Both the position numbers and the translations under genes were made by a program. A stretch of DNA of 64,000 bases, from positions 172,554 to 236,553 of the forward strand of contig JBNRMN010000034.1 of the NCBI GenBank assembly GCA_050309605.1, in the 5' to 3' direction. Source of the DNA: Anaerohalosphaeraceae bacterium (GTDB lineage Bacteria; Planctomycetota; Phycisphaerae; Sedimentisphaerales; Anaerohalosphaeraceae). This document shows, piece by piece, positions 25,610-63,438 of the stretch (within the stretch, counting starts at the first letter, position 1; every line of letters starts with the position of its first letter). The notes under the pieces are model-generated. The model searched no databases, was not told where the DNA came from, and worked only from the letters and a program-made list of their open reading frames with translations.

Positions 25610-25667
25610 TTCTGGACTTGTTTGAAAGAACGACACACACTGTAACGGACAGCCGGCAAAACGGCAA

Positions 25668-33007: not shown

Positions 33008-33175
33008 TAACTCAAACTGACCGATGGCCAGTTTGAGAGATCAAAAATCAAAGATTAAAGAGCAAAATTGAGGATTCGCCCTTTCGGGCGAGCTTTTTTA
33101 CGGCCTTTTTGTGGACACTGTAACATCTTTTATAGACTATATTTATGTCAAAACAGATCCGCTTTTGGGTCAGTT
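33008..33175. repeat. Dispersed ~170 bp intergenic element, copy 1 (longest)
   Basis: 33056-33156 is identical to 38499-38599; the left part matches 51013-51074. Confidence 0.95.
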
Positions 33176-33314
33176 GCGGTTCAATTATTATTTTTCGTTG
33201 CGACCGATTATCAGACATTTTCCACCAAAAACTGACAAACTCGATCAATCACCCCCTGCCGGTTCGGGATACGGGGTTTGTCGCCATGATCCTTTGCTAC
33301 TGTTTTTTTACCCA

Positions 33315-34424: not shown

Positions 34425-34446
34425 TGGGCAAACTCCTCAAAGAAAA

Positions 34447-35232: not shown

Positions 35233-35240
35233 TAACCTTT

Positions 35241-36401: not shown

Positions 36402-36427
36402 ATTTCGATAGGTTTATTTTGTTTCTA

Positions 36428-37327: not shown

Positions 37328-37465
37328 TTTTTTGAAGACTATGATATTGGTTTTCAGGCACAAACGAGCTATCCGGCACAACGCCCCGTGCCTCATGGAG
37401 CAGCGTTCCAACCCTGGCGTTGCAGGGGCGTAGCCAACGTTTTTGCGAAACCTCAAAATGCAAAA

Positions 37466-37523
37466 TTTGCTGGTCTGGCTTGTTTTTTTGCGCTGTTTTA
37501 ACCATTTTTGCAAAAGTCCAGTT
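37466..37523. repeat. ~57 bp direct repeat, copy A
   Basis: tttgctggtctggcttgtttttttgcgctgttttaaccatttttgcaaaagtccagtt; last 28 nt identical to copy B. Confidence 0.93.
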
Positions 37524-37541
37524 CGTAGTTCTTAGCGGTTG

Positions 37542-38465: not shown

Positions 38466-38484
38466 TGTTTACCCTAATTGATCT

Positions 38485-38618
38485 ATGGCCAGTTTGAGTA
38501 AAGAGCAAAATTGAGGATTCGCCCTTTCGGGCGAGCTTTTTTACGGCCTTTTTGTGGACACTGTAACATCTTTTATAGACTATATTTATGTCAAAACAGC
38601 TCCGATTTTCGGTCAGTT
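38485..38618. repeat. Dispersed intergenic element, copy 2
   Basis: 101 bp identical to 33056-33156; lacks 18 nt of the heptamer tract of copy 1. Confidence 0.95.
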
Positions 38619-38635
38619 TGATTTAAAAATTATGT

Positions 38636-38691
38636 TTTGCTGGTCTCGCTTGTTTTTTCGCTATTTTAACCATTTTTGCAAAAGTCCAGTT
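38636..38691. repeat. ~57 bp direct repeat, copy B
   Basis: tttgctggtctcgcttgttttttcgctattttaaccatttttgcaaaagtccagtt. Confidence 0.93.
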
Positions 38692-38698
38692 ATTAAGA

Positions 38699-39355
38699 TT
38701 AAATAATCAAATGCTCCTCGACAACAATCAAAGTCTCAGCCATAAAAGTGATTCTAGATTTTATGATTCGACTCCCAGGAAAAAGATATTCCAACTCACG
38801 CTGAGTGACCAAACATAACTCATTTCTGTCCAATCCAAACTGATATTTCTTGGCGACATGATTATAACTTATTAGTTTTCCGATTACTCGGTAACCATGC
38901 AACGGCAGCCATGTCACAAAGGGAAGGCGCATATGAAACTCAAATGGATACCAGCGATTGGGAGTCGTTACAAACCACGATTTGCCCACTCGCATTATCT
39001 CAGATGCCATCTGTTTTTGATGTTCAAAACTACCAACATGTTCAATGACCGCATTGCTATAGACCACATCAAACGATTTATCGGGATAGGGCAAATTGCA
39101 CGCATTTCCGATGCGGGCGTCAATCTCCGGATAAACTTCCTTGATCTTATTGATATGGGCTTCAGAAAGATTGATCGCTGAAAGATTTGATTTCCATGGA
39201 TAGCTATCAATAAGTTGTAAACTACCATCGCCGGCAGGATTAATTTCAGCCCCAACATCTAAAATACGCATATCTTCATTCGGTTTGATAATATCATAAA
39301 ATAGCTTTAGCTTTTGTTGTCTGCTTTTGCATGATAATCTCGAAAAAAGGCTCAT
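38699..39355 (-). CDS. Class I SAM-dependent methyltransferase
   Basis: ILDVGA, LPYPDKSFDVVYSNAVIEHVG, TPNRWYPFEFH. Confidence 0.9.
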   Translation of the reverse strand: MSLFSRLSCKSRQQKLKLFYDIIKPNEDMRILDVGAEINPAGDGSLQLIDSYPWKSNLSAINLSEAHINKIKEVYPEIDARIGNACNLPYPDKSFDVVYSNAVIEHVGSFEHQKQMASEIMRVGKSWFVTTPNRWYPFEFHMRLPFVTWLPLHGYRVIGKLISYNHVAKKYQFGLDRNELCLVTQRELEYLFPGSRIIKSRITFMAETLIVVEEHLII

Positions 39356-40323
39356 ATTCTGAAATTCTCCTGTTTGGGTGAGGCTAATGCTTTAAAAATA
39401 CTGCACCAGGCGGATGCATAAGCTTTTAGTCTTATCGCGGCGTTCATGTCGCTTCGTCTGATTATGTTTAGTAACCACCATCCCGGAATTCGTATTAATA
39501 AGAACAATGACATTAGCAAACCTGCCATAAAATAATAAGGATAGCTTTTATGTTTGTAAAAAAAGTGCAAAATACCCAGTCGAAGCTGGACCAACGACTT
39601 CGCCCGTACCTGTTTACTGCTCTGCCCGCCCAAGTGGATGATCTGTGCATCCGGATAAAAGAGATTCTGCCAGCCGGCCTGTTTGAAGCGAAAGCACCAG
39701 TCGGTTTCTTCGGCATACATAAAAAAGTCTTCATCCATCAGGCCGACCTGTTCGATGACTTTTCGCCGAACCAACATAAAACAACCGGTTACGACATCGA
39801 CCTCGCGAACATTATCGCGATTCCACCATGACATGCGTTCCCGACCGAAAAAACGGCTGTGCGGGAAGATTTTATAGAGATAGCTTGCCGACAGAAACAA
39901 ATTCAGCAGCGAGGGGAACATAAAGCAGGTCGGCTGAAGGGAGTGATCCGGATTCAGCACTTTGCAGCCCACCACAGCGGCTTGGGGGTGCTGGTCGGCA
40001 AAGGCAACGGTTTTTTGAATCGCGCCGTCCAAAACAATCGTATCGGAATTGAGCAGCAGGATATAGCGGCCTTTGGCGATCCGCATGCCCTGATTATTGG
40101 CCGCGGCAAAGCCGCGGTTTTCCGTGTTTTCGATGAGGAGAGCCTGCGGAAATTCGGACTTGACCCTCTGAGCCGACCCATCGGAGGACGCATTGTCAAT
40201 GACGATGACTTCAAAGTCCATGCCGTGTGTCTGCTGGAACACTGAAGTCAGACAGTTCCGGAGAATATCCCGCGTATTCCAGTTGACAATGATGATAGAA
40301 CAGTCATATGGCTGCATCGTCAA
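39352..40323 (-). CDS. GT2 glycosyltransferase (rhamnosyltransferase-like)
   Basis: SIIIVNWN, IDNASSDGS, NRGFAAANN, LLNSD, FFMYAEETDWC. Confidence 0.94.
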   Translation of the reverse strand: MTMQPYDCSIIIVNWNTRDILRNCLTSVFQQTHGMDFEVIVIDNASSDGSAQRVKSEFPQALLIENTENRGFAAANNQGMRIAKGRYILLLNSDTIVLDGAIQKTVAFADQHPQAAVVGCKVLNPDHSLQPTCFMFPSLLNLFLSASYLYKIFPHSRFFGRERMSWWNRDNVREVDVVTGCFMLVRRKVIEQVGLMDEDFFMYAEETDWCFRFKQAGWQNLFYPDAQIIHLGGQSSKQVRAKSLVQLRLGILHFFYKHKSYPYYFMAGLLMSLFLLIRIPGWWLLNIIRRSDMNAAIRLKAYASAWCSIFKALASPKQENFRI

Positions 40324-40337
40324 TCTATGATCCTATT

Positions 40338-41528
40338 TTAGGTGAGCATATCTTTTTTTTTGATTTGTCGTCGAATTCGCTGGATTTTTTCGAATAAAGT
40401 TTTATTTTGCATCGTTATTTTTTTACAAATTACACTCAATGCTGTCAATACCGAAGCGATGAGATTTGCAATGATTAATTTAGGACAAAAAGAAAGGATC
40501 ATCCACGTACATTCCTGCCATTTATCCCCTTGCGGCCATTGTTTATGTCTTTCCTGGCCATGATCGGAGTCCCAGATCATGATTTTCGGCTCTTGACATA
40601 TGTCCTTCAACATTCCAATCAGGACAATTGTTCCAACACTGTATTGTGCCCACTTGGGATCATAGCCCATTCGATCTCCGAAACAAATGTGTTTGTACTT
40701 ATAGGCCAAATAGAAAGCACAGGGGCTTTTTTGAATATAAAGCACGTACGCCAACAACCAGCCCTTTTGCGCACAGTCGGTCAACAAATGAATGGTTCTG
40801 TCATCATCATTAACACCCGCACCATAAGCTGATTGGTACGTTTTGGCAGAAATATAGGCCATGTCTTGTACTGCTATAGAGACTTGGTCGGGACTGGAAA
40901 ATCTTTTGAAAGCAACCTGATTGGGATAGGCTGCATGAAGCTTTCGCTCTTTTTTACGAATAACAGATCGCCTGTTTTTTGAGCAGCGACTTAGCAGCTC
41001 ATCAAAACTCGAGCTTAACAGACAATTAAAATGGATAAGCTTTCGGGCATAAAAGGGCTGACGCAGCCTTGTAATATTTCTCTTCAAGGCTGCGAATAAA
41101 GGATTATCGGTACGAATTCGTTCAAAGACGATACCCTGAATATTTTGAGATTTCAGCGTATGAAGCAAGCTGTCCGTTAAAAAGTTACACAGGGCATCGT
41201 CCAGATGGCCGAGAACACCACCATAAATAATTGACCAAGAAGAGAATGTCGGCGTCCAAAGATGATTATACCCCAGCTTGCAATCGATACAGTTTGGTTT
41301 CAAGACACCGATTAACAGGACAACGACTTGATTGTGGTCTTTAACGAGGCCAATACATGGGGTTTGGTTGGGATCCGCATTGGAAAGAACTGCCAGATAA
41401 CGATCAATATCCGCATGAATGATGGGATAGTCCTGGGCATTTTGCAAAGCCGCCCATGCGGGCCGCAGATTTTCGATACCCAATCTGTCGGTGATGATTT
41501 TAAAAGTTAATCCTTCAAGGTCACGCAT
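40338..41528 (-). CDS. GNAT-family (CelD/BcsL-like) acyltransferase, paralogue 3
   Basis: SFDELL..CSKNRR, GYDPKWAQYSVGTIVL; start probably ATG 41528. Confidence 0.8.
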   Translation of the reverse strand: MRDLEGLTFKIITDRLGIENLRPAWAALQNAQDYPIIHADIDRYLAVLSNADPNQTPCIGLVKDHNQVVVLLIGVLKPNCIDCKLGYNHLWTPTFSSWSIIYGGVLGHLDDALCNFLTDSLLHTLKSQNIQGIVFERIRTDNPLFAALKRNITRLRQPFYARKLIHFNCLLSSSFDELLSRCSKNRRSVIRKKERKLHAAYPNQVAFKRFSSPDQVSIAVQDMAYISAKTYQSAYGAGVNDDDRTIHLLTDCAQKGWLLAYVLYIQKSPCAFYLAYKYKHICFGDRMGYDPKWAQYSVGTIVLIGMLKDICQEPKIMIWDSDHGQERHKQWPQGDKWQECTWMILSFCPKLIIANLIASVLTALSVICKKITMQNKTLFEKIQRIRRQIKKKDMLT

Positions 41529-41533
41529 ATAAA

Positions 41534-42676
41534 TCAAGAGATATTTTGGTAAAAACGGCGGATTAGCTTCGTTATTCGCTGCCAAAGGCGTCTGATAAAC
41601 TTAACATCATAAATCTTCCATATTGCGAAATAGAACCCGACGAGTACTCTCCCCGTGGCTCTGCTTCCTGTAGCACTTCGCCATATCTGATGTTGATGTG
41701 TTCCCCAAAATCTCTTCCAAAGCGCATCACTATGCCCAAAGTTTATCACCTTGATTTGTTCATGACAAGCATCACGAAATACCTGTTGAGTCAGCATATC
41801 ACCAATGGACTGTTGCTTTATATTGAACTTGAGCTTAAATGCTCTTAAATGGATTTCCAGCCTTTTGTTATTGTGGAAAGCCAGTTCGAACGCCGCATTA
41901 TCGCCGTTTATTGTCATCAGCCAAAGTCGAGCCAGGTCCGCCTGAGCCATGGCCAAGATTAAACTGCGTCTGAAAGGATTTGCCAAAAAGACGGCACCGC
42001 GCTGAACCATCCAACTTTGCTGTTGGATTTCAAGTGCCTTATCCAGCACGGATTCTGTCAACTTTGTTCCCCTATAATGATGGATTTGAACTTGCCCCAG
42101 CTCATAAAGCTTTTTTTCTTTCCATCGTAATTTTTTTTTGCTCTTTGGTGATTTGGTTTGGTTCAAATAGTCTTCAAATGAACCGTTCAATCGGGCATAA
42201 TGGGTTATGTTGCGGTACACCTGATGGGACTTCATGCCTCGCTTATGAAGCTCATTTAAAAGTTGTTGAGTTGCAATGTCATCAGAGGACAGATCATCAT
42301 TTACATAAACATCAAAAACTCGATTGCAGATAATAAAGTCTGCCAATTGGCTGAGAACATCCAGATGCGCAGAATCCAGTAAAATACCCAAGCAGCCGGG
42401 GATTCCGGTACCAATGGGTTTAGCCACCTTTAACCAAGCGATTCTGCATATCATCAATGGTAATACAGCAAGCAATGTGCCATTTTGACGAATCGTCAGT
42501 ATAGATACACGGCCTTTAAACTGATGTGTCTCAATAAACGTTGACACCCAAGGAAAACTAAGACAGTAAGGTGCATAATCGGCCCGTGCAAAAAGTTTGC
42601 ACCATTCATTTTGAAGCGCTTGATATGTTTTTATTCCGAATGATTCAATGTGATAGGAACTTGAATTCATTTTCAT
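41534..42676 (-). CDS. GNAT-family (CelD/BcsL-like) acyltransferase, paralogue 2
   Basis: LQNEWCKL, AVLPL, SFEDYL...KKLRWKEKKL, RLWLMTING, FG.SDALWKRFW. Confidence 0.82.
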   Translation of the reverse strand: MKMNSSSYHIESFGIKTYQALQNEWCKLFARADYAPYCLSFPWVSTFIETHQFKGRVSILTIRQNGTLLAVLPLMICRIAWLKVAKPIGTGIPGCLGILLDSAHLDVLSQLADFIICNRVFDVYVNDDLSSDDIATQQLLNELHKRGMKSHQVYRNITHYARLNGSFEDYLNQTKSPKSKKKLRWKEKKLYELGQVQIHHYRGTKLTESVLDKALEIQQQSWMVQRGAVFLANPFRRSLILAMAQADLARLWLMTINGDNAAFELAFHNNKRLEIHLRAFKLKFNIKQQSIGDMLTQQVFRDACHEQIKVINFGHSDALWKRFWGTHQHQIWRSATGSRATGRVLVGFYFAIWKIYDVKFIRRLWQRITKLIRRFYQNIS

Positions 42677-42695
42677 ATTGTTATATCGGAATTAA

Positions 42696-43886
42696 TCATC
42701 TTTGATTTTCGATTTTTTCATGCAACTTTCTGCGCCATTTGCGCTTGAGCCATCCGTAAATACCACATTTTTTAACTGTCCACATCAGGCCGAGAGTGAA
42801 AATGGAATTCACCGTAATGACCAGATTAATCAGAATCGGATAGACTCGCGGCGCAAACAGATACGTTGCAGCCGCTTCCTGCCAGGATTCATCCCCATAA
42901 CTTTGTTTATATTCGGCATCACCAAAACCGAAGTCCAACTGCAATGCTTTTGGATCACTGCAAAGCTCATCAAGGACTTTTAGAAACAATACGGAACCCA
43001 CATTCCAAGAGGCATAATGAGGATCGTATCCCAGTTTTTCCAAAAAGTAAGTCCCACGGTAGATCGTTCCCCATTGAAAGCTGACAGGCTGATTGCGCAG
43101 ATACATAATGGATAAAAAAAGCCGACCTTTTTCTATGTCTTTCGCAATTATCGATCGCAACAAAGGATTGTCATAAAAGCCCACTCCCAGTGGATGTTGA
43201 TAGGTTTTTTCTGAAACAACAACAGCATCATGAAACATTTTCTCAAGATTACAGTTTTTTCGATAATGGATGATATGAAGGCGTTCTTTGTATTGAGATT
43301 CTAATTTTTTTTGAACTCGTTTAAGGTTGGCCCGATGCTTTTTAGAGAGTTTCGTATAAAATTCATCTACGTTACTTGGTATCGACATTCGCCAGTGAGG
43401 CTCAATAACCAGAAAATGACTGCGGCTCCAAAACGAACCCCGTCGTATCTGTATGAAAAATTGGGTATCGATCCGTAAATGATTGAAAAAGATAACATCG
43501 ATTTGACGCTTTCGGAGTAACTTTCTAAACTCTTTGCACAATAATGCAGACGTCTCATTGTCAGGCTGGCCTAAAATAACGCCGTAAACCACTGTTATGG
43601 CATTGAGTTTGGGTCTGAGAAACGTTTTATAGCCTATGCAAACCGGTATTGACAGTTTTTCACGGCGACCAATGATTATCGCACGGAGGAATTGCCCCTT
43701 TTTAAGCAGTATAAACAGTGGACTGCACCGATTTTCATTGGCCTTCAATACGGACAAATAGCGGTCAATGTCAGCATTGATGACCGGACAAGGCTCCTGA
43801 TCCTGCAACTGCTGCCAGACAGAACGAATGGATTCGATCTGGTCAAGGGTTTCAATGATTTCGACCTGCCAGTTATTGTTATTCAT
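42696..43886 (-). CDS. GNAT-family (CelD/BcsL-like) acyltransferase, paralogue 1
   Basis: EFYTKLSKKHRANLKR, GYDPHYASWNVGSVL, LDFGFGDAEYKQ. Confidence 0.85.
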   Translation of the reverse strand: MNNNNWQVEIIETLDQIESIRSVWQQLQDQEPCPVINADIDRYLSVLKANENRCSPLFILLKKGQFLRAIIIGRREKLSIPVCIGYKTFLRPKLNAITVVYGVILGQPDNETSALLCKEFRKLLRKRQIDVIFFNHLRIDTQFFIQIRRGSFWSRSHFLVIEPHWRMSIPSNVDEFYTKLSKKHRANLKRVQKKLESQYKERLHIIHYRKNCNLEKMFHDAVVVSEKTYQHPLGVGFYDNPLLRSIIAKDIEKGRLFLSIMYLRNQPVSFQWGTIYRGTYFLEKLGYDPHYASWNVGSVLFLKVLDELCSDPKALQLDFGFGDAEYKQSYGDESWQEAAATYLFAPRVYPILINLVITVNSIFTLGLMWTVKKCGIYGWLKRKWRRKLHEKIENQR

Positions 43887-43917
43887 TGTTTTGTGATCTG
43901 AAAACACGGATTTGTCT

Positions 43918-45294
43918 TTATTGTGACTTTGTGGAGACTTTTGAAGGGAGAATAACTGCCGTTTGTTTGGAAGTCCATTTGGAGCGTCTGATCGGAATTT
44001 GACTTGAGGTCGCGGTCAAGCTGGCAATCATAGCTAAAAGCAAATACCAGAGAATCGTGATCTGGCCGAAATAGGATACTCCAAGAAAATTTGTGCAGTG
44101 AACAAACAGACTGACTCCCAATGCCCACGATAATGCCAGTCGATATGTATTATCTGTATTTTGCCGCCACAGCTTGCCAATACTGTGAAATGCAAGAGTA
44201 ATCACTGTTATGAATAATGCCAGTGTCAATAAACCGCCTTGTACGCCGACCAGAACGTATTGATTCGTAATGTCGGCAGCGTGAACGCCCCATCCCAAGA
44301 CAGTGTAACCTGAGCAACCCATGAGCCACCACTCACTGACGTTATTGATTGCTGCATTGAGAAGTTTATAACGATGATAACTGGTGGACCCGCTTACCGC
44401 GCTAACCCGCGAAATCAAATGCCAGACGGGCGCCTGCATCATTAGATGAAGTCCGATCAGCATAAATAAAATTCCCCAACGAATAGGGCGCATTCTCTTG
44501 CGGAAGAAAAAAAACAAACCGCCGACAACAGCGCTTATCACTCCCATGACAGGAGTGCTTGATGCACAAGCGGCGACAATGAATAAGGACGTCAATAAAC
44601 CAATTATCGCTTTTGAACGATCTTTAGATGACTTCCACCAAAATGCGGCGATTAACGGCATCAACGCCGCCCAAAAACATCCGGCCAGAATGGCATGTGA
44701 ATAGGCGCCGCTGGCGCGAATTCTACCGTCGCGCACTGATGAGAACAGCGACTTTCCGCCAAATATCGAAAAGGCATTGCGTCCGGTAGCTTGCTCCATC
44801 ACGAAGAAAAAGGCTACTGGAATGCTGATGATCACAATACCGAAAATGATACGGTCCACATCCTGCCAGTGCCGTACTAAACAACGAAATAGAAAATACA
44901 TTCCAAACGCGTCAAACCCAAAACCGAGGCGATTAATAACCGCCGAAAAGGAGTTTTCACGAAGGATATATAATCCCATATAGGTCAACGTATATAGAAT
45001 CATCGCCGTATCCAATGGCTGCCAGATAAAGCCCTGATACTCTTTGTGAAGTATCAGCCGCATTGTGCCGAACAGGACCATAATCCGCAAAAAACTGAAA
45101 TCGCAACCTGCAATGACAATGCGCTGGGCCGACGGGATGAAGCAGGCGATGATCAGCATCGGGACCACTGACCATCGACGCGGCAACCATAAAAGGCACA
45201 GCCCCAGGACAACGACCATCGCCAACCCCAGCGGGTGAACGGAGGTCTGACCGGCCCATGAAGGGTCGCCTACAATGTGACGCTGATCATCCAT
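43918..45294 (-). CDS. Multi-pass membrane protein, probable Wzy polymerase / O-antigen ligase-like
   Basis: About 10-12 TM segments; RDGRIRASGAYSHAILAG, S.YHRY.L, DITNQY; location in the EPS operon. Confidence 0.75.
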   Translation of the reverse strand: MDDQRHIVGDPSWAGQTSVHPLGLAMVVVLGLCLLWLPRRWSVVPMLIIACFIPSAQRIVIAGCDFSFLRIMVLFGTMRLILHKEYQGFIWQPLDTAMILYTLTYMGLYILRENSFSAVINRLGFGFDAFGMYFLFRCLVRHWQDVDRIIFGIVIISIPVAFFFVMEQATGRNAFSIFGGKSLFSSVRDGRIRASGAYSHAILAGCFWAALMPLIAAFWWKSSKDRSKAIIGLLTSLFIVAACASSTPVMGVISAVVGGLFFFFRKRMRPIRWGILFMLIGLHLMMQAPVWHLISRVSAVSGSTSYHRYKLLNAAINNVSEWWLMGCSGYTVLGWGVHAADITNQYVLVGVQGGLLTLALFITVITLAFHSIGKLWRQNTDNTYRLALSWALGVSLFVHCTNFLGVSYFGQITILWYLLLAMIASLTATSSQIPIRRSKWTSKQTAVILPSKVSTKSQ

Positions 45295-46234
45295 ATGATT
45301 TACGATGTTTCCACGCTCGGTATTGTTCTATTAACTTTAATGGCAATAAAACATATATTAAGGGCTTGTAATATCTGACACTGGACGGATGCAACTTAAT
45401 ACAGGAAAAAGCCGTTTTGAATGCCGCAAAAAATCTGCCTGTCCTACGGAGATCCAGTACACTTTCCATAAAATGCGGGACGACTCCGTATAGCTGCTCG
45501 TTTTCTGAGACCGCTCTTTTATGTTCAGGAAGATATGATTGTCCTCGTCGCGCATAGGTTTTTTTCAAGACGGCCTGCACTTTTTCGGCCTTGCGTTTTG
45601 CGTCTGAACGTGTGTTTGATGAGGGATTGATCCGATAGGAATAAAGACACTCGCCAAGAACCATCAAGGGGTATTGTTCACCGACACGAAGAATATAATC
45701 CCAGCCCTGACCAATTCTCAAGTCCGGATCATATTTCAAATCCTTGACCATAGACATTCGAAACATGACTGTCGGATCATGGGATGGCATACGCATCTGC
45801 TCAATATCTTCCCTGCATTCCTCAGTGCCTTTATCGCGAAAACGCGGTGCAATACGGCGACCCTGTATAATCAAATCATAGCCGCTAAAGACTCCGGCGA
45901 TGTGGGGATATTCAGCCATCGTCTCAACGAGCCGTTCGATACGCGCGGGATAACTTAAGTCATCCGCATCCTGAATGGTATAAAACCGGCCACCGGCTAT
46001 CTCTAATGCCCTATTCAGCGCAACCGACTTACCGGCATTATTTTGCCTGAGAATCTTAATGCGACTGTCCCTGATGTCTGCTATCGATTCAAAACAGCCA
46101 TCCGTACTACCGTCATTGATGATGATAATTTCTAAATTTTTGTAGCTTTGACAGAGAACGCTCTCAAGAGATGGACGCAGATATTGTCCTGCATTATAAA
46201 CGGATATCAAGATGGAAACGAGAGAGTCTGGCAT
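45287..46234 (-). CDS. GT2 glycosyltransferase
   Basis: VSILISVYN, INDGSTD, NAGKSVALN, QDADD. Confidence 0.93.
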   Translation of the reverse strand: MPDSLVSILISVYNAGQYLRPSLESVLCQSYKNLEIIIINDGSTDGCFESIADIRDSRIKILRQNNAGKSVALNRALEIAGGRFYTIQDADDLSYPARIERLVETMAEYPHIAGVFSGYDLIIQGRRIAPRFRDKGTEECREDIEQMRMPSHDPTVMFRMSMVKDLKYDPDLRIGQGWDYILRVGEQYPLMVLGECLYSYRINPSSNTRSDAKRKAEKVQAVLKKTYARRGQSYLPEHKRAVSENEQLYGVVPHFMESVLDLRRTGRFFAAFKTAFSCIKLHPSSVRYYKPLIYVLLPLKLIEQYRAWKHRKSYG

Positions 46235-46246
46235 AACAGAGAGTTT

Positions 46247-47077
46247 CTATGCAAGGATTCGCTTTAGTTTGTTTCTCAGCACACGTACACCTTTTCGCCA
46301 GCCGGTATAATACGTAACCTCGAAGGGATCGTCGAGCAGGTTTCGGACAATGTCGTTACGTCGTTTCATGCGCCCTTCTACGTCGTTATAGCTGCCTGAC
46401 TTGAGGCCGAACGTGATGTTTTTGTACACTGCAAAGCTCTCAGCGTCTTTTATCATGCAATATTTGCTCTTGGGGTCATCCATATGTTCTTGGTAGATTA
46501 GCGGGTAGTACCAGCCGTTGATATACCCGGCTCGGGCCATCTGCATAAAATAATATGTTGTGCCGGTCATGTGGCCTGGTTTCCAAAGACCCTGTTCCAA
46601 AAATGTTTTGCGCTTTAGGATAAAGCCCGAACCGGCGACCCAGGGATGGCGAAAAATCTGATGGCCGTTAAATTCCTGGATCTTGTGTCTGGCTCGGTCG
46701 TAGTCAAAGTCTTCTTCAAAAAAATGCCACATCCCCACGGCGCCAAGCTGCGGAATCTCCTGATGCGCTTTTGCAAAAGTGCGCGTCCAGCCGGGGGTGG
46801 GCAGGCAGTCGTTGTCCAGTTTGCCGACAAGCTCGGATTTTGTTTGTGACCACGCCCAGTTCATCGCGCCAACCTGCCCTTCGTTGGTTTTGCTGATGTG
46901 AACGTCTGCAATCCGGGGATCGCTTAGGCTTTTGAGGTACTCGGCCGTTTGGTCCGTCGAAGCATTGTCCCACAAATACAGTTCAAACTCCTCGGCCGGA
47001 TCTTCCAGAAGCCGCGGGATGGTTTTTTGGGTGTATTCGAGCCGATTATGGGTGGGAATAACGATTGTAACATGCAT
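46247..47077 (-). CDS. GT2 glycosyltransferase
   Basis: IVIPTHNR, WDNASTD, KLDND. Confidence 0.9.
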   Translation of the reverse strand: MHVTIVIPTHNRLEYTQKTIPRLLEDPAEEFELYLWDNASTDQTAEYLKSLSDPRIADVHISKTNEGQVGAMNWAWSQTKSELVGKLDNDCLPTPGWTRTFAKAHQEIPQLGAVGMWHFFEEDFDYDRARHKIQEFNGHQIFRHPWVAGSGFILKRKTFLEQGLWKPGHMTGTTYYFMQMARAGYINGWYYPLIYQEHMDDPKSKYCMIKDAESFAVYKNITFGLKSGSYNDVEGRMKRRNDIVRNLLDDPFEVTYYTGWRKGVRVLRNKLKRILA

Positions 47078-47110
47078 GATGAGACCTGCTGGACTTGTCG
47101 AGGCTGTTGA

Positions 47111-48913
47111 TTATTCAAATTTGTTCAACCATACCGCAAGTTGAAGTAGTCTAAATCCATCTTGCCAATGTAAATTATTTGATTTTATTAGAGTTGATCC
47201 TGAAAGATTGAAGACTGTTTCATTTAATCGATTTAAACGGGAAGCGTACTGATCAATCAGAATTATAATACGTTGATTTGATTGCCAGTAATCTTGATAA
47301 TCGTGCCAAGAATGCTGAATCAAGGTGTTTTTCCCAAATCTATTTAACAACTTTGTTCCTTTATCTTGCGATTTTCGAATTACTCGCTGAATAAGATAAT
47401 TCACTTGTTTACTCGCGGGCGTCACGCCGTTGTCGGCCGAGGGGATATATTTCCCAGATCCATATAAATCAAGGGTTGATTTCAAAAAAAACTTTTTATT
47501 AAATTTAAGGTTAACTGGACAACGAAAAGCTACATCCAAAATTCTGCGGTCAAAAGCAACAAATTTTTGATTAAGAACTCTCCTCTCTGCTGACCAACAT
47601 GCCCCAATCTTGTTTTGGGAAAAGGGATAAAGATGAAGCCATTCCGCCTGACTTGTACGATTTTTTTGCAGAAATTCAGCAAGAAACTTTTGCTTTCGAT
47701 CATAAATTTGATGGACAAGATTAATCTTAAGATTAGATTTTGAAAAGCTCGTCAATTGATGAGCAAAGTCGTAACTACTGTGCTTAAATTCAGGGGGCCT
47801 TAATCCCCACAAACGTTTGTGTTTTATAAAATCTACGGCAAAATGTGCTTTGAGATAAGCATCGATCTCCATGCCATTAAGCAATACATCAATATTATGA
47901 GTAAAAAATTGTTCAGCTGCTGCAATACCATGAGCATTGATCCAGTCAAAATCGCACCCTATCAGCCTCGTCGTCTGCAACAAACAATCAGCCAAATAGT
48001 TTTCGCTGCGTTGAAGGGGGTACCATGGTCGGCCATAGCACTGAGAGACTTTCATCGCTGTTCGTGTTTCACGGTTTTCATGGTCACAGAGAGTTAAGCC
48101 GATGCACTCTTTAGACTCTGGTACAAGGGCCATAATCAAACGAGAATCCAAGCCGCCGCTGAGTGCAATGCCAACCTTGTGATGGTTTTTAATGCGATCC
48201 TGTACGCTTGCGACCAAGGCTTTGCGTAAATCGTCTGCAAGCTGCTCTTCACTGATGGTACGGTCCTCAGCAGGCGGTGTCCAATATTGCATGGATTTGC
48301 GGGTCAACCTTTGATTGTTAAATTCAAAGCAATGTATTGTGCCCGGACGCATTTCCTTAACATGCTTGTACGTCGTGTGGGGAAATGTCGTCGTCCCGGC
48401 GTTCAGAAATTCTGCTAGTGAGACATGGTCAAGATGATTTTTTTCTCCACTGACCGCGGCTATCGTTTCCAGGTGTGTGCCAATATAAATGCTTTCCGGG
48501 TCACCAGATACCTCATTGTGGATGAAAACCTGCGTATAAGCCATTGGATCTGTGATAATGACAAGCTGGTTTTGGGTGGCAATCAAACACGCAAACGCAC
48601 CGTTAAGTTTTGTAAAGCATTCCCGATGTAATTGCAGATTCTCGTTATTGGGCTGATTGAGTGTCTCCAAAATTTCATCGACATCCTTTGCAGAAAGAGG
48701 CGATACAAGATCACCCACCCACGCAAAAATGATTCCGTCAAATTCACAGATATTCTTACAATTTGCTAACTGATCCTCAAGAACAGCGGCATTCCCCCAT
48801 GGGTACTCAAAAAAATGACCCACAGGCTTTTTGTCTCCATAAGGCAACCGCAACAATCGACATAAATGGTGGCCTTGAAGCTCTCTGTTTAATGAAATAA
48901 GAAAATCAGGCAT
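47111..48913 (-). CDS. Asparagine synthetase-related amidoligase
   Basis: LNGAFA, ITDP, PP-loop ALSGGLDSRLI; no N-terminal catalytic Cys. Confidence 0.87.
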   Translation of the reverse strand: MPDFLISLNRELQGHHLCRLLRLPYGDKKPVGHFFEYPWGNAAVLEDQLANCKNICEFDGIIFAWVGDLVSPLSAKDVDEILETLNQPNNENLQLHRECFTKLNGAFACLIATQNQLVIITDPMAYTQVFIHNEVSGDPESIYIGTHLETIAAVSGEKNHLDHVSLAEFLNAGTTTFPHTTYKHVKEMRPGTIHCFEFNNQRLTRKSMQYWTPPAEDRTISEEQLADDLRKALVASVQDRIKNHHKVGIALSGGLDSRLIMALVPESKECIGLTLCDHENRETRTAMKVSQCYGRPWYPLQRSENYLADCLLQTTRLIGCDFDWINAHGIAAAEQFFTHNIDVLLNGMEIDAYLKAHFAVDFIKHKRLWGLRPPEFKHSSYDFAHQLTSFSKSNLKINLVHQIYDRKQKFLAEFLQKNRTSQAEWLHLYPFSQNKIGACWSAERRVLNQKFVAFDRRILDVAFRCPVNLKFNKKFFLKSTLDLYGSGKYIPSADNGVTPASKQVNYLIQRVIRKSQDKGTKLLNRFGKNTLIQHSWHDYQDYWQSNQRIIILIDQYASRLNRLNETVFNLSGSTLIKSNNLHWQDGFRLLQLAVWLNKFE

Positions 48914-50440
48914 TTAACTTTTATGTTTCTTCAGTATTTTCACGACTTTTATAAGTCGCAGTATCGGCTCAATGCTCCACTCTATCATGCAGCATGCTAC
49001 AAAATACACAGCTATACCCACACAAAAGGTAATGAATAACTGTGATGCCGGATTAAAACCGTAAATCAAGAAAGTGTTCAGCGAGAAGACTGCAGAGGCC
49101 ATTATCAGCGACGCCAATAGCGGTGTTCTGAACGCGTTTAATATAATTCTCAATGTTACCGGTGTACCCCGCGAAGCATACCACATAGACGGAATAAACA
49201 AGCTCAACCTGCAAACAGTAACCGCAAATGCAACCGCTGTCGGGCCATGGCCTGCGCTTACAGAAATAGAGCCTATCAGAAGTAATCCATCGACCAATCC
49301 AAGTCTGAACATGCGATGGGTTTGATTTGTTGTCACAAAAAGCCATCCTTGACTGGTCCAAACAGTGTATACCAATCCAAAGATTCCAAGTATTGCAAAA
49401 ATACTGCTTGCCGCAAGCCATTGTTCTCCCAGTACAATTTCAATAACTTGAGATGACATCACAATCAGAAATGCAGTCACGGGCATTGAAAAAAATGACA
49501 TGAAATATATTACCTGGCTATAAAATAAACGGTAATTAACGGAATCTTCCTGCAACCGGCTGAGTGCAGGAATCGCCACCGATCCGATCGGACCTCTTAT
49601 TTGGGTCAATGGCAGCAATAGTAGTGCATATGCTCTGCTGTAATACCCTAACGCAACCGAACCTGACAGTTTCCCTATTAAAACGTGGTCTAGATGGCGG
49701 CTGATATAATTTACAATACTGTTTGCCGTAATAAAACCGCCAAAACCCAGCATTTTCTTTGTACCAATTCGACGCTTAGGCCTGCCCGGAAGCCATGGAA
49801 AAGCAATCCATTTGCCGGCGGCTGTGGCTACGGCAAGTGCAATGTGCATGAAAACCAGCGACCAGTAACCAGCACCAAACAGGCCGGCAATGATGGCAAC
49901 AGCAACAGCGATAGCCATTGCGACAATCTCGACTACACCGATAGCAAGAAAACGCATATGCCGCTGCAGCATGGCCTGATGCTGGACGGTCAGGCCGCCA
50001 AAAATGAAGGTTGTTGCCAGCGCCATGGTTACCGGTGTCAACCGCGGATCGTCGTAAAACCACGCCACGGCCGGCGCCAGAGCGAATACAACAGCAGCTA
50101 CCGAGACTCCCAACGCAGCATTGACCCAGAAAAGCGTGCTGACTTGGTCATGATTGATCTCGGCCCTTTGAACCGTCGCAGACGAAAGCCCCAAGTCACG
50201 AAACATCAATGCAAAATTGGTCACAGCGGTGACCATCGCAATGAGGCCAAAATCGGCCGGCGTCAGGATGCGCGCCAAAACGACCGTTGAGCCGGTCTTC
50301 AGGATAAACTTGCAGGCTTGGGATACTACTGTTATCGCCCCGCCGCGGACGGAACGGCCTTTCAAATCGGCCGTTAGGTAGCTGGTGTCGAATAGATCAG
50401 AGGAGTTTTGAGGTTTAAGTTTTGAGTTAATTGTCAGCAT
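48914..50440 (-). CDS. wzx: Polysaccharide flippase (Wzx/PST, WzxC-like)
   Basis: LARILTPADFGL, DLGLSSATVQ, STLFW, LGYYSRAY, PALSRLQ. Confidence 0.92.
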   Translation of the reverse strand: MLTINSKLKPQNSSDLFDTSYLTADLKGRSVRGGAITVVSQACKFILKTGSTVVLARILTPADFGLIAMVTAVTNFALMFRDLGLSSATVQRAEINHDQVSTLFWVNAALGVSVAAVVFALAPAVAWFYDDPRLTPVTMALATTFIFGGLTVQHQAMLQRHMRFLAIGVVEIVAMAIAVAVAIIAGLFGAGYWSLVFMHIALAVATAAGKWIAFPWLPGRPKRRIGTKKMLGFGGFITANSIVNYISRHLDHVLIGKLSGSVALGYYSRAYALLLLPLTQIRGPIGSVAIPALSRLQEDSVNYRLFYSQVIYFMSFFSMPVTAFLIVMSSQVIEIVLGEQWLAASSIFAILGIFGLVYTVWTSQGWLFVTTNQTHRMFRLGLVDGLLLIGSISVSAGHGPTAVAFAVTVCRLSLFIPSMWYASRGTPVTLRIILNAFRTPLLASLIMASAVFSLNTFLIYGFNPASQLFITFCVGIAVYFVACCMIEWSIEPILRLIKVVKILKKHKS

Positions 50441-50927
50441 TCAGATTCCAGCTTCCAGCGGCCAGCTTCGCTGGAATTTAGAATGAAGAAAGAAAAATGT
50501 AGAATTTAATAACATTCAATTAAGTCTGCGCGGACGCTGTCCCGGTCGGTTGACGACAATTTTGAATTTTTAATGCTTAATTTTTAATTATTCAGTAGCA
50601 AGCCTTCAGCGTCCGGCTTCCAGCGGCCAGTGGACAAGAAATTGCCTATTTCCGATTTCCTATTGCCAATGTGATTAAGCCGACACGTTCGGTCTTTAAC
50701 GGGCTGAAACGACCGTATGATTCTGGTAATGGACGGTCTTTTTCTCTCGCCGCGCTGCAACTGTATTCAACTGTCACTATTTCGGCTGTTTACGGGGATA
50801 ATTGTACCAAAAAATAGGAAGAAAACAAGATTGTCTTGTGTTTGAGCTGCCGGCTGCGCCGGAATGTAGAATTTAGTATATAGAATGAAGAATTCGTAAT
50901 CAGCTTCCGGCGGTCAGCGGTCGGCAA
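50403..50927. repeat. Cluster of eight short degenerate 7-nt-period arrays
   Basis: Arrays at 50403-430, 50434-468, 50472-506, 50557-591, 50599-633, 50640-667, 50860-894 and 50900-927, each 4-5 units. Confidence 0.88.
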
Positions 50928-51012
50928 GGTGCGGAATTTTCTTCATCAGTATCCTTAAAGTCCGATAATATTATTGCGGCTGCGTTGACGGAGGGAACGG
51001 GATACGTTAAAC

Positions 51013-51083
51013 TAACTCAAACGGGTCGATGGCCAGTGTGAGAGATTAAAAATCAAAGATTAAAGAGCAAAATTTTCGGTCAG
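51013..51083. repeat. Dispersed intergenic element, copy 3 (internally deleted)
   Basis: Left ~60 nt match 33008-33069 and join directly to the right end 'ttcggtcag' seen at 38608-38616. Confidence 0.85.
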
Positions 51084-51241
51084 CTTGAGAAGCTAAATAG
51101 TTTGGTTATGGGATTTTATTGGGTTTGTTGGATTGCGGCTTGCTATCGCCTTGGAGATTGCGGGGGGATATTTTATGCTTTATTTGAGTTGAAAAACCTT
51201 CGACATGACGAAATATGACATTCAAACTTGAGGATTGTGGT

Positions 51242-54200
51242 ATGAAGACCATCTTTTATAGCGGACGGTTACCAATCGCGGCCTGTTCTTTGTTGCTGAT
51301 GTTAACCACAACGGCGAGCGCTGAGGTCGGCCCGAACTGGATTGAGCAATGGGGCATTCGCTGGACATTTGATAAGAATCTTTCGCTGGACGGTGCAGGC
51401 GATACATATCAATACGGCCAGTTCGTTAATGGCGATTATTGGGTTATCGGGCCTGTAAATATCATTAGTATTTCGCCTGAGACTGTTGTTTTATCTGAAG
51501 ACACACCTTGTCCAGATATTCCAACTCGAACAATGTCTGCGGGGCGTTCGATTAACGGGTCGATGTTAAATCCAGACCCTGGCGGGTCTCAGGGTTATGA
51601 TAGTGATGCGGGTGGTTACAGCGCTGAGCTTAATGTTGCTTTAGGCGTCAGCGAAAGTACCCCGCTTTCGATTACCACCGGTTCACTTGTTTCGACTGTC
51701 AGCAGGGTAAGTACAAATGAAGGGTCTGACGCGGCTCGTGTCTGGAAGGCATCTGTATTAACGGTTGTTTCTGAGGCTCCTGCAACAGGCAGTTTCAGGC
51801 CGCCTTATACCGGATCGGACAAGACATCTTATTTTAACGAAGACCAACTTGATTATTCGTTGTTATCTAATCTTCAGCCTGTTTCTGGAACACCTGTGCT
51901 TGCTGATTTAGCTCAAGACTTCAAAAAACTATGGCTCGACCATAAAAACGGCTGGAGCACCGGCCAAATACACCCCAAAGAGAATATGCCAACTTATGGC
52001 CGTGAATTGTCAAACAAAGTAGGTGTGGCGGCTCTTGCATTACATACACGGTGGAATGAAGATGATGAGCAGAGTAATGCACTCAAACGCGATTTAATGA
52101 TTGGATTTGTTCAGTATGGTATTGATAGCTTCGGTTTGATTAGCAATGGGGGCGAAAGCTTATGGATTGCTGATGGTGGGCACGGTGCAGGTCGGAAATG
52201 GCCTATTTTGTTCGCTGGATTGGTATTAAATGATGCGGATATGATGGCGATAGGCGAAAAGAGCGGCTCGTATAGATACACAGGTGAGTACGGTCCAGGA
52301 AACTTGCCGCCGGACCTTGTTAATTTCCAAGAAGATAACTCTACGTTTTACGTCAAAGAATCTGACGTTTATGAGCCTCCTTATGAGTTTTATTATGTTG
52401 GTCAAAAATATGTTAATCACGGTTCAGTTATTGTAACCAATGGCAGTAATGTAGTAGAAGGTGTTAATACGAGTTGGACAGCAGATAAGCTGGAAGGTAG
52501 GCTTTATTTTGCCGTGCGGTACGGTCCAGAGGTAGGATACTCCATGCGGGCTTTGTTGGGAACTGACCCGGAAGGAAGCAGGTATGATTGCCGGGGTGGG
52601 TATGACTTCCGAATTATTGGCTATGATATAGATAATCAACAGCTTTTCTTGGGCGATGAATCACTGAATCCTAAAAATTTTGATGGATACTCCGGTGAAT
52701 ATACTGAATATGTAATTTCGGAGCATGTCATTTTTGGACACGGCGATATATCGAAAAGGCACGATTTTGTAGAGTTTATTTCAGATGATGTTGGTATACC
52801 GTACTGGGGTATTCGCTATGCAAGACAGCCTCGAACAGCAGGCCGGCAATGGGACAGGGGTTATATTTGGATAGGGAAATCATTTGCCGGCTATGTGTTG
52901 GCCGCTCGGATTATGAATGCTGCTGTCAATGTAAAGTACGAAAGTACTGTTCAGCAACTTTGGAATCACGATGCCTTGTTTGATTATCTTGATCGTTATA
53001 TGACCTACCTTGATGGAGACTATGCACAGGGTTCGAAGTGGGTCTTTGATATGTGGGATGCTTATCGAGGAGATTATGGACCTATTTGGCCGGAGACCTC
53101 CGGTAAAAGAACTGTTCAACACAATTTGGGCGTTGAATATGACCTCCAACGAGGAACGGTCACACCGGATAGCGGGCAATATCCTACTGGCAGTGAAGTG
53201 GTACTTTATGCCCAAGCTAATGATGGCTATCGGTTTGTCGGCTGGGGAGGCGATGAGACTGGTATTGAGCCATCGGTTACCATTACGATGGATGAGGACA
53301 AGACAATTCTCGCACTTTTTGAGCCGATTGAGTATGCGCCCGTCGCACAGCAACTCGCTCATTTGCCGCTGACAGAGGCGGTTAATGGTCAGGTCAGTGA
53401 TTTGTCGGTCAATATGCATACGGCGACGGCGGAGGGCAATGTGACCTTTGAGTCCGGGATGGGGGCGCGGTTTGACGGCAGCGATGGTTATTTGCGCGTT
53501 GCCGATGCCGACAGTCTGGATATGCAGGAGCCAATGACCATCTCAGTGTGGATATGGCCGATGGGCGCCACGCCGTTTGCCAAGCTCGTCGTCAAGCCGT
53601 ATGCGGCCTATGCGTCCCCCTGGGAGATGTACGCCATCGACCTGGGCAGCAGCGGGGATACGCCTCGGTTTATTGTAACCGATGGAATCGCCGGCGGCCG
53701 CATCGCCGTCGCCGCCAACAGCGATGTGAAGCTGCAAACCGGACAGTGGTATCATCTCGTGGCGGTGTATGACGGCCAGTCGATTGCACTGTACCTGGAT
53801 GGCCGCCTCATCGCCCAACAAAGCGTCGATTTTGCCATCGGAACCAACAACCAGCCGCTGTGTATCGGCGGGCGGATGGGCTTGAATACGTTTGACGGGT
53901 ACATCAACGATGTGAAGATCTATCAAGGGGCGTTTACGCCTGAGCAGGTATCCGGCATCTTCTCTCGCGATCGAAACAGCGGGTTGGCCGGGCACTGGCT
54001 GTTTGAACGGCCTTATGTGGCCGAGGTGACGGATGTGGTCAGCGGGCAGAAGGCCGAATTGGTCGATCAGCCTGACTGGGGCGAAGGCTGGGCAGCGGAG
54101 TATTTTGTCCGGCTGACCGATGGCCGGCAGGCCGTACAGATTCCTATGGACGGCAGCACTGCCGAGGCCGGGACGATTGGGCTGTGGGTGCAGCCGGAAG

Positions 54201-54913
54201 CCGCAACGGATACAGAAACAGCCTCTGCCTTGCAGCTTTTGTTCGGGCATGCCGTCAACAGCGACGATAATCGGATCACGCTTTATACCGTTGAAAGCAC
54301 AGACGCCGAAGGCAACACGGTGCACAAGTTGGCGCTGGGGCTGGGCGATAATGCTGCACTTCAAGATAATATTGCACAGCTTGTGCCGGGGCAGCTTTAT
54401 CATGTTGCGTTGACGTGGGATGGGACAACGTATGCGGTATTTGTTGACGGTGTGCGGCGGGATGCGGGAACCTTCAGCGGGCTGACAGAGCTGGAAGCGT
54501 TTGCCGATGTCGGCAACTTCGGCACGGCCAGCGGACGGGCGTATGCGTCGGGTTTTCGGGGCCTTGTCGATGAGATACGGCTGTACCGGCGGGCGCTTGG
54601 GTCTGAGGAGATTGAGCGGCTGTTTTTGACCCATACGGTCAACGAAAACCGACCGATTGAGTTTGTGGTATCGGGGTATGATCAAGCGGGCAACCGGATA
54701 TCCTATACGGCTGCTAAACTGCCCGACGGTGCGACGTTTGACGAACAGACACAGACCTTCTCCTGGCGGCCCGGTCTGTATAATGCGGCGGGACACTATG
54801 AGGTGGTATTCGCTGCTGCTGACCAGCCGGAGCAAACGGTGACGATCGCCGTGCGGGATGTGGCCCTGGCGGGGTGGTATATCGCGTTTTTAGAACAGCA
54901 CGGACTGCATTGA
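51242..54913 (+). CDS. Large secreted protein: unknown N-terminal domain, InlB-B/bacterial repeat, two LamG domains, putative Ig domain
   Basis: Signal peptide; A.ANDGYRFVGWGGD; WYHLVAVYDG..LYLDG..FDGYINDVKIY; YHVALTWDG..FRGLVDEIRLYRRAL; LPDGATFD..TFSW.P. Confidence 0.9.
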   Translation: MKTIFYSGRLPIAACSLLLMLTTTASAEVGPNWIEQWGIRWTFDKNLSLDGAGDTYQYGQFVNGDYWVIGPVNIISISPETVVLSEDTPCPDIPTRTMSAGRSINGSMLNPDPGGSQGYDSDAGGYSAELNVALGVSESTPLSITTGSLVSTVSRVSTNEGSDAARVWKASVLTVVSEAPATGSFRPPYTGSDKTSYFNEDQLDYSLLSNLQPVSGTPVLADLAQDFKKLWLDHKNGWSTGQIHPKENMPTYGRELSNKVGVAALALHTRWNEDDEQSNALKRDLMIGFVQYGIDSFGLISNGGESLWIADGGHGAGRKWPILFAGLVLNDADMMAIGEKSGSYRYTGEYGPGNLPPDLVNFQEDNSTFYVKESDVYEPPYEFYYVGQKYVNHGSVIVTNGSNVVEGVNTSWTADKLEGRLYFAVRYGPEVGYSMRALLGTDPEGSRYDCRGGYDFRIIGYDIDNQQLFLGDESLNPKNFDGYSGEYTEYVISEHVIFGHGDISKRHDFVEFISDDVGIPYWGIRYARQPRTAGRQWDRGYIWIGKSFAGYVLAARIMNAAVNVKYESTVQQLWNHDALFDYLDRYMTYLDGDYAQGSKWVFDMWDAYRGDYGPIWPETSGKRTVQHNLGVEYDLQRGTVTPDSGQYPTGSEVVLYAQANDGYRFVGWGGDETGIEPSVTITMDEDKTILALFEPIEYAPVAQQLAHLPLTEAVNGQVSDLSVNMHTATAEGNVTFESGMGARFDGSDGYLRVADADSLDMQEPMTISVWIWPMGATPFAKLVVKPYAAYASPWEMYAIDLGSSGDTPRFIVTDGIAGGRIAVAANSDVKLQTGQWYHLVAVYDGQSIALYLDGRLIAQQSVDFAIGTNNQPLCIGGRMGLNTFDGYINDVKIYQGAFTPEQVSGIFSRDRNSGLAGHWLFERPYVAEVTDVVSGQKAELVDQPDWGEGWAAEYFVRLTDGRQAVQIPMDGSTAEAGTIGLWVQPEAATDTETASALQLLFGHAVNSDDNRITLYTVESTDAEGNTVHKLALGLGDNAALQDNIAQLVPGQLYHVALTWDGTTYAVFVDGVRRDAGTFSGLTELEAFADVGNFGTASGRAYASGFRGLVDEIRLYRRALGSEEIERLFLTHTVNENRPIEFVVSGYDQAGNRISYTAAKLPDGATFDEQTQTFSWRPGLYNAAGHYEVVFAAADQPEQTVTIAVRDVALAGWYIAFLEQHGLH

Positions 54914-63347: not shown

Positions 63348-63438
63348 CGGAGAGGGCGGGATTCGAACCCGCGGTGCGGGCGATTACCCACACGACGGTT
63401 TAGCAAACCGTTGCCTTAAGCCGCTCGGCCACCTCTCC
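63348..63438 (-). tRNA. tRNA-Ser (GCT), CCA not encoded
   Basis: GGAGAGG acceptor stem, D arm TGGCCGAGCGGCTTAAGGC, anticodon arm ACGGT-TTGCTAA-ACCGT, long variable arm, GGTTCGAATCC. Confidence 0.97.

Follow-up and report, generated by a model that had tools for sequence, protein, structure and literature searches.

What is a field of nine short tandem arrays, all with a period of 7 nt but with differing core sequences, doing at the head of a polysaccharide operon? The question is raised by a spacer between two divergent genes in a 64,000-nt stretch of DNA (the window) on contig JBNRMN010000034.1 of an Anaerohalosphaeraceae bacterium, whose genome, 99.7% complete, is referred to here as G000. 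An initial annotation had placed the arrays at the head of an exopolysaccharide (EPS) operon and interpreted them either as a code of sites for ring-shaped nucleic acid-binding oligomers or as scars of cassette exchange. The placement was correct, since a wzx-type flippase at the edge of the spacer heads the polysaccharide operon. As for the arrays, the field is the densest cluster of a genome-wide class of heptamer repeats resembling the short tandemly repeated repetitive (STRR) sequences and, on balance, is probably made up of orphan or empty modules of cassette arms in a spacer that was exchanged as one block. This reading draws on the periodicity of the arrays, the genome-wide class to which they belong, the association of that class with a gene family, the homology of modules across genera, the stability of unit numbers, and the mosaic block in which the spacer lies. 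The locus thus represents a new host and a new instance of a published, unexplained repeat class.

Periodicity of the Nine Arrays

All nine of the period-7 arrays first described are present, at 50403-51071 (Table 1). The identity at lag 7 ranges from 0.57 to 0.76 per array, compared with 0.10-0.52 at lags 5, 6, 8, and 9, and every array falls within the top 0.03-0.6% of same-length windows in the 64 kb. The region as a whole gave a clear autocorrelation signal: identity at lag 7 reaches 0.377, whereas dinucleotide shuffles average 0.256 (z 7.1), and 0/1000 of them attain the observed value. The lag-14 identity is likewise high (z 5.6), and Tandem Repeats Finder (TRF) detects four arrays with period 7 and one with period 14 in the region. 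The recurrence of two types also held, with three copies of the CCAGCKK array and two of the TAGAATK array, all in direct orientation. The supposedly constant length of 28-35 nt is roughly right for the field, but unit numbers across the genome run from 2.5 to 8.5 and fall off with a shoulder at 4-4.5; a sharp length optimum at 4-5 units was not seen among the arrays of G000. A check for strand bias found no uniform bias within the spacer, as can be seen directly in the sequence. GGG tracts in each unit occur in 0/9 arrays, and the four or more consecutive G-tracts expected of a G-quadruplex are thus lacking.

A Genome-Wide Heptamer Class

To place the field in its genomic context, arrays were collected from G000 with a detector that asked for four units and at least 75% lag matches, removed low-complexity sequence, and merged arrays. 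The detector returned 127 arrays of period 7, compared with 2, 19, 2, and 0 arrays of periods 8, 9, 10, and 11, respectively. Periods 5 and 6 yielded 59 and 118 arrays, which are mostly non-coding in only 9 and 13 cases. About 107 of the 127 heptamer arrays are intergenic, although the genome is about 90% coding; these counts rest on a crude open reading frame (ORF) map of our own rather than on annotation. At least eight core families can be distinguished, including CAGAGGT/CAGAAGT, GAATTNA, AAAACTN/CGAACTA, GAAATTY, AAAAGGY, GACGATG, GATCAAA, and CCAGCTT. In co-directional spacers, about 31 of 63 arrays start between -13 and +10 nt from the upstream stop codon, and in 44 of the 63 it is the sense strand that is rich in purines.

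No other heptamer field in G000 is as dense as that of the EPS spacer, where period-7 segments take up 196 of 800 nt, compared with 125 for the field ranking second. An enrichment of arrays at glycan loci, which had been anticipated, was not seen in an informal look at the seven densest fields, of which two lie at such loci. The remaining ones belong to housekeeping operons and are found at thrS, pseudopilin genes, TrmO/thioredoxin, M48/LemA, and an AMP-binding/ACT operon.

Four-Helix-Bundle Cassettes Bracketed by Heptamer Arms

A family search of G000 recovered seven matches to TIGR02436, a four-helix-bundle family. None of the seven lies in the window, in agreement with the earlier view that no such gene is encoded there. 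Each of the seven genes is bracketed by inverted arms, and six of these arm pairs consist of heptamer arrays, with a core particular to each copy (AGTTTTA/TAAAACT, AGAATTT/AATTCTC, AAAAGGT/CCCTTTT, GACGATG/CATCGTC, GAAATTC-type, and CAGAGGT/ACCTCTG). The suspected link between arrays and TIGR02436-type genes was confirmed for G000: a detected array lies within 150 nt of 6/7 genes, compared with 147/2679 ORFs (5.5%; binomial P about 2e-7). Four of the genes are intact (C3:70077, C33:73331, C33:74265, and C33:76008). A single in-frame TGA is present in two others (C33:141360-141677 and C96:51317-51583), and one is truncated (C67:162100-162279); these last three may be pseudogenes or recoded.

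The cassettes sit within housekeeping operons. For example, the leucine operon (C33:71000-78000; locus L126) has the order leuB-[4HB]-leuD-[4HB]-leuC-[4HB]-leuA (4HB, four-helix-bundle gene), with one cassette in each internal spacer. Two of its three four-helix-bundle proteins, together with their arms, are close paralogs. Further cassettes lie at gspF/gspE, at ribF and a DHH gene, at M48/LemA, and at a sugar transferase/decarboxylase pair.

The family was found in 35 of 41 related genomes. Inverted arms beat all 50 shuffles at 17 of 29 loci in these relatives, and among the 14 strongest loci the best arm period is 7 in 10 and 8 in 4 (L029, L030, L036, and L039, with, e.g., GTATATAG- and ACTCAAGA-type units). 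Thus, the arm design is not strictly heptameric. Three loci (L020, L021, and L045) show long direct repeats on either side of the four-helix-bundle gene, with scores of 97, 109, and 243, respectively, in direct alignment; these repeats could represent tandem cassettes or an rRNA-type context.

The cassette arms and the solo arrays draw on shared core families, with 67 of 119 solo arrays lying within one mismatch of an arm consensus from the same genome. Array density rises weakly with the TIGR02436 count across 13 genomes sampled at 80-106 kb each (Spearman rho 0.55, p 0.05); these genomes are related and hence do not count as independent data points. In two genomes where the family was not found, 0 arrays occurred in 100 and 106 kb, and a third such genome (G007, 99% complete) has 2 arrays in 106 kb.

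In the EPS spacer itself, no gene lies between arms. A remnant of a four-helix-bundle gene was sought there with a hidden Markov model (HMM) of the genome's own paralogs, which gave nothing at E up to 1000 with filters off, and with tblastn in six frames, for which the best E was 0.72. Homology to the arm of a gene-bearing cassette is found for array 4 only, as described below.

Modules Shared across Genera

Array 4 (50558-50590), its odd AATGCTT unit included, agrees at 31/33 bases with the left arm of a TIGR02436 gene cassette from a related genome (G028) and, again at 31/33, with one arm of a gene-less hairpin in another (G034). Array 3 matches a solo array in a third genome (G017) at 29/31 bases. 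The irregular unit order of both arrays is thus kept across genera. In metagenomic run X7, at least six other contigs match only the array 4 stretch. The proposal that the arrays are scars of cassette exchange gains some support from the likeness of array 4 to the G028 cassette arm and from the EPS locus being a recombination mosaic.

Conservation of the Spacer and Stability of Unit Numbers

A sister species (G002) carries the same spacer. Between 50300 and 51249, the two genomes differ by 11 substitutions and one 2-nt indel, which corresponds to about 98.7% identity over 950 nt, compared with a background of 81.6% over 54 kb (32 blocks, 66-87%); their flippase proteins are 54% identical. The near-identical block has step-like edges. 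Identity rises from about 0.7 to at least 0.98 near 50290 and drops to about 0.5 at 51250, and 50349-50696 is fully identical. Because of these edges, and because the near-identity extends over non-array filler and synonymous coding positions, we read the spacer as having probably been exchanged recently between species, as a recombination block at a mosaic polysaccharide locus. Two more near-identical blocks were found: one at 38859-40300 of the window (98.2%) and one at L101:9308-9782, matching G000 C13:15602-16076 (99.6%). The former takes in two genes of the EPS operon, for a methyltransferase and a GT2 enzyme; the latter lies on a different contig and could be a mobile element that the two genomes share.

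The view that the arrays are not products of simple slippage was upheld, because unit numbers are identical in G000, in G002, and in contigs from three independent metagenomes, which carry the same alleles. Whole-unit indels, the mark of a phase-variable repeat, are absent from all nine arrays, both in G002 and in runs X3, X4, and X7. Only two of the substitutions between G000 and G002 fall inside arrays, and each makes its unit more regular; the one at 50888, in array 7, renders the G002 unit regular. The full-length spacer was found only in G000 and G002 among the 41 related genomes. An exact 25-mer search returned one public genome contig and no metagenome contig, and the spacer sequence was found in runs of 12 studies; the samples that carry it include digester and sludge material.

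Folding and a MITE-Like Element in the Spacer

Two of the array clusters are predicted to fold. Cluster 1 (50400-50520, arrays 1-3) would form an imperfect gene-less hairpin, with fold z scores of -2.5 on the + strand and -3.0 on the - strand (200 shuffles per strand); it contains inverted repeat I4, and the predicted local structure pairs array 1 with the tail of array 3. In cluster 3 (50830-50935), array 8 and 50845-50863 would pair to give a GC-rich stem, with the TAGAATK array 7 as the loop of the hairpin; the z score is -2.6 for the - strand but -0.4 for the + strand. Cluster 2 (50545-50675) and the last array fold no better than shuffles. A 38-nt inverted pair, 50551-50588 and 51045-51082 (71% complementary, 456 nt apart), was considered as a set of cassette arms and rejected; it is treated as a family resemblance because its right arm is the internal array of a transposon-like element and nothing gene-like lies between the arms.

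That element resembles a miniature inverted-repeat transposable element (MITE). It is about 200 nt long, non-coding, and bounded by 15-nt terminal inverted repeats, and at least 10 copies occur in G000, while copies that are 78-93% identical are found in several related bacterial families. Its interior holds a heptamer array of the GATCAAA type as well as a GC hairpin with a T run behind it, and it has no Rfam match. The window contains a full copy at about 33008-33215 besides the internally deleted one in the spacer; other copies include C33:46552, C33:60405, C63:56722, C52:9738, C9:28498, and C67:69936.

Proposed Origin of the Field

According to the explanation that we favor, the arrays would be dispersed repeat modules, copied as blocks in which the irregular unit order and the unit number are retained. 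Such modules come to lie in non-coding DNA between genes, frequently directly at a stop codon, and inverted pairs of the same heptamer families serve as the arms around cassettes of four-helix-bundle genes (TIGR02436/PF05635) of the intervening sequence (IVS) type in operons. The EPS spacer, which lacks such a gene, comprises two clusters predicted to form gene-less hairpins and three solo arrays, with one array in the truncated MITE-like element and one now coding for Wzx. Orphan or empty arm modules would thus have accumulated in a long divergent spacer, and the whole spacer would then have been exchanged recently between species at the head of the variable EPS locus. On this view, the process behind the cassette arms would also have produced or spread the solo arrays, which would probably have no dedicated role in EPS control.

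Several observations weigh against this explanation or are equally compatible with others. The intergenic preference depends on the crude ORF map mentioned above. An inverted partner within 700 nt exists for only 19/127 arrays, and 127 arrays face 7 TIGR02436 genes, so that most arrays are not visibly cassette-derived. Arms may have arisen from arrays or arrays from arms. The arms of 12 relatives' cassettes also match 67 solo arrays, and the cores therefore lack own-genome specificity; since own and relatives' arms match equally many, the order appears to share one pool of families. CCAGCKK, the commonest type in the field, has no counterpart among the cassette arms of G000. A single fold spanning the entire field is no more stable than that of shuffled sequence (z -0.63 and -0.86 for the + and - strands, respectively). 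Lastly, the 400 nt holding clusters 1 and 2 show a single-base difference between the sister species, and selection for some function that escaped detection, rather than recent exchange, could account for the close similarity of the two spacers.

With respect to EPS biology, the result is mostly negative, as there was no sign of the arrays regulating the operon. With respect to mechanism, stable unit numbers, the recurrence of whole modules across genera, and sharp-edged blocks narrow the candidates to block-wise copying and recombination. G000 also offers a compact test bed, in which four intact paralogs lie in their own heptamer arms alongside about 120 more arrays of the same families and one spacer with nine arrays.

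Alternative Explanations

The arrays could instead be sites for a ring-shaped oligomer, with one 7-nt unit per subunit, pentameric Avd-like proteins as readers of paralog-specific cores, and the EPS spacer as a regulatory hub; we consider this possible but on the unlikely side. Avd, the accessory variability determinant of diversity-generating retroelements (DGRs), is reported to be a pentamer that binds nucleic acid and reverse transcriptase. It is a small four-helix-bundle protein of the same superfamily as the TIGR02436 proteins, and the closest solved relative of two of the G000 paralogs, 2rld (a single entry), has five chains. PF05635 also appears in a DGR review, in the part of the article available (PMC10053308). 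The proximity of arrays to the TIGR02436 genes, all of them between inverted arms, the presence of a distinct core in each cassette and of these cores among the main solo families, the predominance of 4-5 units in the arms and field arrays, the correlation of array density with gene count, and the unusual conservation of the spacer all fit such a reader. Against it stand unit numbers that range from 2.5 to 8.5 and reach 9 in one arm, the 8-nt period of arms in four relatives' cassettes, the mere four intact genes for 127 arrays of at least eight families, the persistence of two arrays in G007, and the lack of own-genome core specificity; moreover, the association is equally well explained if the arms are cis-structures of a mobile cassette. 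A trans-acting version, in which solo and hairpin arrays are putative sites for pentameric four-helix-bundle proteins in an RNA/DNA network with the EPS spacer as the hub that controls or processes the divergent transcripts, appears unlikely. A related idea concerns HutP and TRAP, ring proteins with short-period RNA sites, that of HutP being UAG-N4. The concept of one short repeat unit per subunit is shared, and the TAGAATK unit (UAG plus four bases) has the UAG-N4 form, but that these arrays are sites for a HutP- or TRAP-like antiterminator ring is almost certainly wrong: neither family is encoded in G000 (0 hits to PF09021 or PF02081 at an E-value cutoff of 0.1 in this nearly complete genome), and no terminator follows the arrays.

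A conserved regulatory region of the divergent EPS genes, comprising promoters, 5' UTRs, and operator sites, held under purifying selection and with the arrays as sites for a DNA- or RNA-binding regulator, would account for the near-identity of the spacer, its fully identical core, and the occurrence of the same sequence in runs of 12 studies. An RNA library (run X19) gave contigs only on 50389-50540 and the MITE stretch, and the identical 152-nt contig over the former, which covers cluster 1, is a weak hint of transcription, with DNA carry-over possible; the stretches without contigs are uninformative. Nevertheless, we hold this explanation to be distinctly unlikely, as a block with step-like edges that takes in filler and synonymous positions is what recent recombination typically leaves, identities of 98.2% and 99.6% are likewise seen in coding blocks of this locus, and other genomes carry the same array modules in unrelated contexts. 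In addition, a consensus scan of the spacer for promoters and terminators found 2 and 1 sites, respectively, as many as in shuffles, and no Rfam family matched in 50000-51600 at E up to 1. Ordinary slippage repeats, possibly acting as a phase-variation switch for the EPS operon, were also weighed. Surface-polysaccharide operons are a classical place for contingency loci, and short tandem units beside such an operon would suit one. Yet the units are degenerate, unit-number differences are zero over nine arrays between G000 and both G002 and the three metagenomes, and the irregular unit order is kept across genera, which makes slippage very improbable. The 2-nt indel, at 50743, lies outside the arrays. 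A 7-nt indel at 51019, upstream of array 9, occurs in a 126-nt low-depth contig with 12 other differences, and this contig, in the multi-copy MITE stretch, may stem from another copy of the element.

Comparison with Known Repeat Systems

STRR heptanucleotide sequences were reportedly described in heterocystous cyanobacteria by Mazel et al. in 1990. To our knowledge, these repeats and their relatives have been unexplained since then. The G000 class resembles them in its tandem units of exactly 7 nt, in excess over neighboring periods, with several cores per genome and many dispersed, mainly intergenic copies. It differs in that its units are more degenerate, its cores are others, and it is tied to four-helix-bundle cassettes. 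The class is termed STRR-like here rather than STRR proper because its host belongs to the Phycisphaerae and is no heterocystous cyanobacterium.

Other heptamer repeats have been described as well. GGGNATC-type heptamers in Xanthomonas and Nostoc are G-rich and form G-quadruplexes; according to the part of the report available, they are over-represented in non-coding DNA, prefer aligned ORFs and positions within 50 bp of the stop, show a preference for about four units, and occupy stable loci (Rehm et al., 2015; PMC4692102). On the strength of that part, the G000 arrays share the non-coding location, the position between aligned ORFs and near stops, the size of about four units, and the stability; unlike them, the field arrays are mostly A/T- or purine-rich and lack G-tracts. 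TAACTGA direct repeats occur in marine Beggiatoaceae, Cyanobacteria, and some Bacteroidetes, with S1, Csp, or CsrA as proposed binders, as stated in the accessible text (MacGregor, 2015; PMC4679880). As far as that text goes, those repeats have a single core and lie mostly just upstream of start codons, whereas the G000 arrays have many cores and more often abut stops. Taken together, the accessible texts of both articles nevertheless portray heptamer repeats with habits like those of the G000 arrays. Terms for four-helix-bundle proteins had 0 matches in the available portions of either article, nor did IVS terms in that of PMC4692102.

The closest likeness to the cassettes themselves is offered by the IVS of the Coxiella burnetii 23S rRNA with its S23p protein, for which the accessible part of the description (PMC4990558) indicates a PF05635/TIGR02436 gene enclosed by complementary arms that can form a long stem, a layout found for all seven G000 genes. 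In contrast to the IVS, the G000 cassettes lie in mRNA operons (leuABCD, gspEF, ribF, and others) rather than in rRNA, their arms are heptamer arrays, and the EPS spacer has arms only, without a gene. Literature searches found no paper linking heptamer repeats to the IVS/Avd-like gene family. A four-helix-bundle protein is a fair candidate for a binder of the arrays.

The Locus and Its Neighboring Genes

The features of the spacer and its surroundings are collected in Table 1. Array 1 is also the coding sequence for about residues 2-12 of Wzx, and homologous flippases align from residue 6-7; an array of the AAAACTN family may have been taken into the Wzx coding sequence. Downstream of wzx, the operon encodes, according to Pfam, GT2 glycosyltransferases, FemAB-like acetyltransferases, a methyltransferase, WecG, and a UDP-GlcNAc 2-epimerase.

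Table 1. Coordinates of the heptamer arrays and associated features in the window.
Feature	Position	Strand	Remarks
Array 1, GAGTTTT family (AAAACTN on - strand)	50403-50432	-	Lag-7 identity 15/23; inside wzx ORF
Array 2, TCAGMWT/CCAGCKK, first of three direct copies	50437-50471	+	TRF score 35; repeat family D1; lag-7 18/28
Array 3, TGGAATT/TAGAATG type (UAG + 4 bases), first of two direct copies	50473-50507	+	TRF score 31; families D2-D4
Array 4, AATTTTK with odd AATGCTT unit, dispersed module	50557-50591	+	TRF score 43
Array 5, CCAGCKK type, second copy	50599-50633	+	Family D1, 87% identical to copy 1; lag-7 18/28
Array 6, ATTKCCK	50640-50667	+	Lag-7 16/21; detected at 75% threshold
Array 7, TAGAATK type, second copy, loop of cluster 3 hairpin	50860-50894	+	TRF score 36; families D2-D4
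Array 8, CCGGCKK/TCAGCGG type, third copy	50900-50927	+	Lag-7 12/21
Array 9, GATTAAA type	51044-51071	+	Within MITE-like element
MITE-like element, internally deleted copy with array 9	51013-51092	+	Multi-copy, terminal inverted repeats
Sharp-edged near-identical block, G000 vs. G002	50290-51250	.	Spacer, first ~50 wzx codons, and first ~3 codons of + strand gene
Spacer between divergent genes	50441-51214		774 bp; field of nine arrays inside or at edge
wzx-type polysaccharide flippase	48914-50440	-	Polysacc_synt_3, E 4e-86; first gene of EPS operon
EPS operon	33315-50440	-	Content by Pfam
Divergent gene, 1232-aa secreted protein with LamG and Ig-like domains	51215-54913	+	Laminin_G_3, Flg_new_2, He_PIG

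Elsewhere in the window, the only Rfam matches at the gathering threshold are a cobalamin riboswitch (25393-25617, - strand, 78.5 bits) and a tRNA (63348-63438, - strand). Just past the EPS operon, a gene at 29776-31755 (- strand) encodes a 659-aa protein in which a nucleotidyl-transferase/hexapeptide part is fused to an exosortase EpsH domain.

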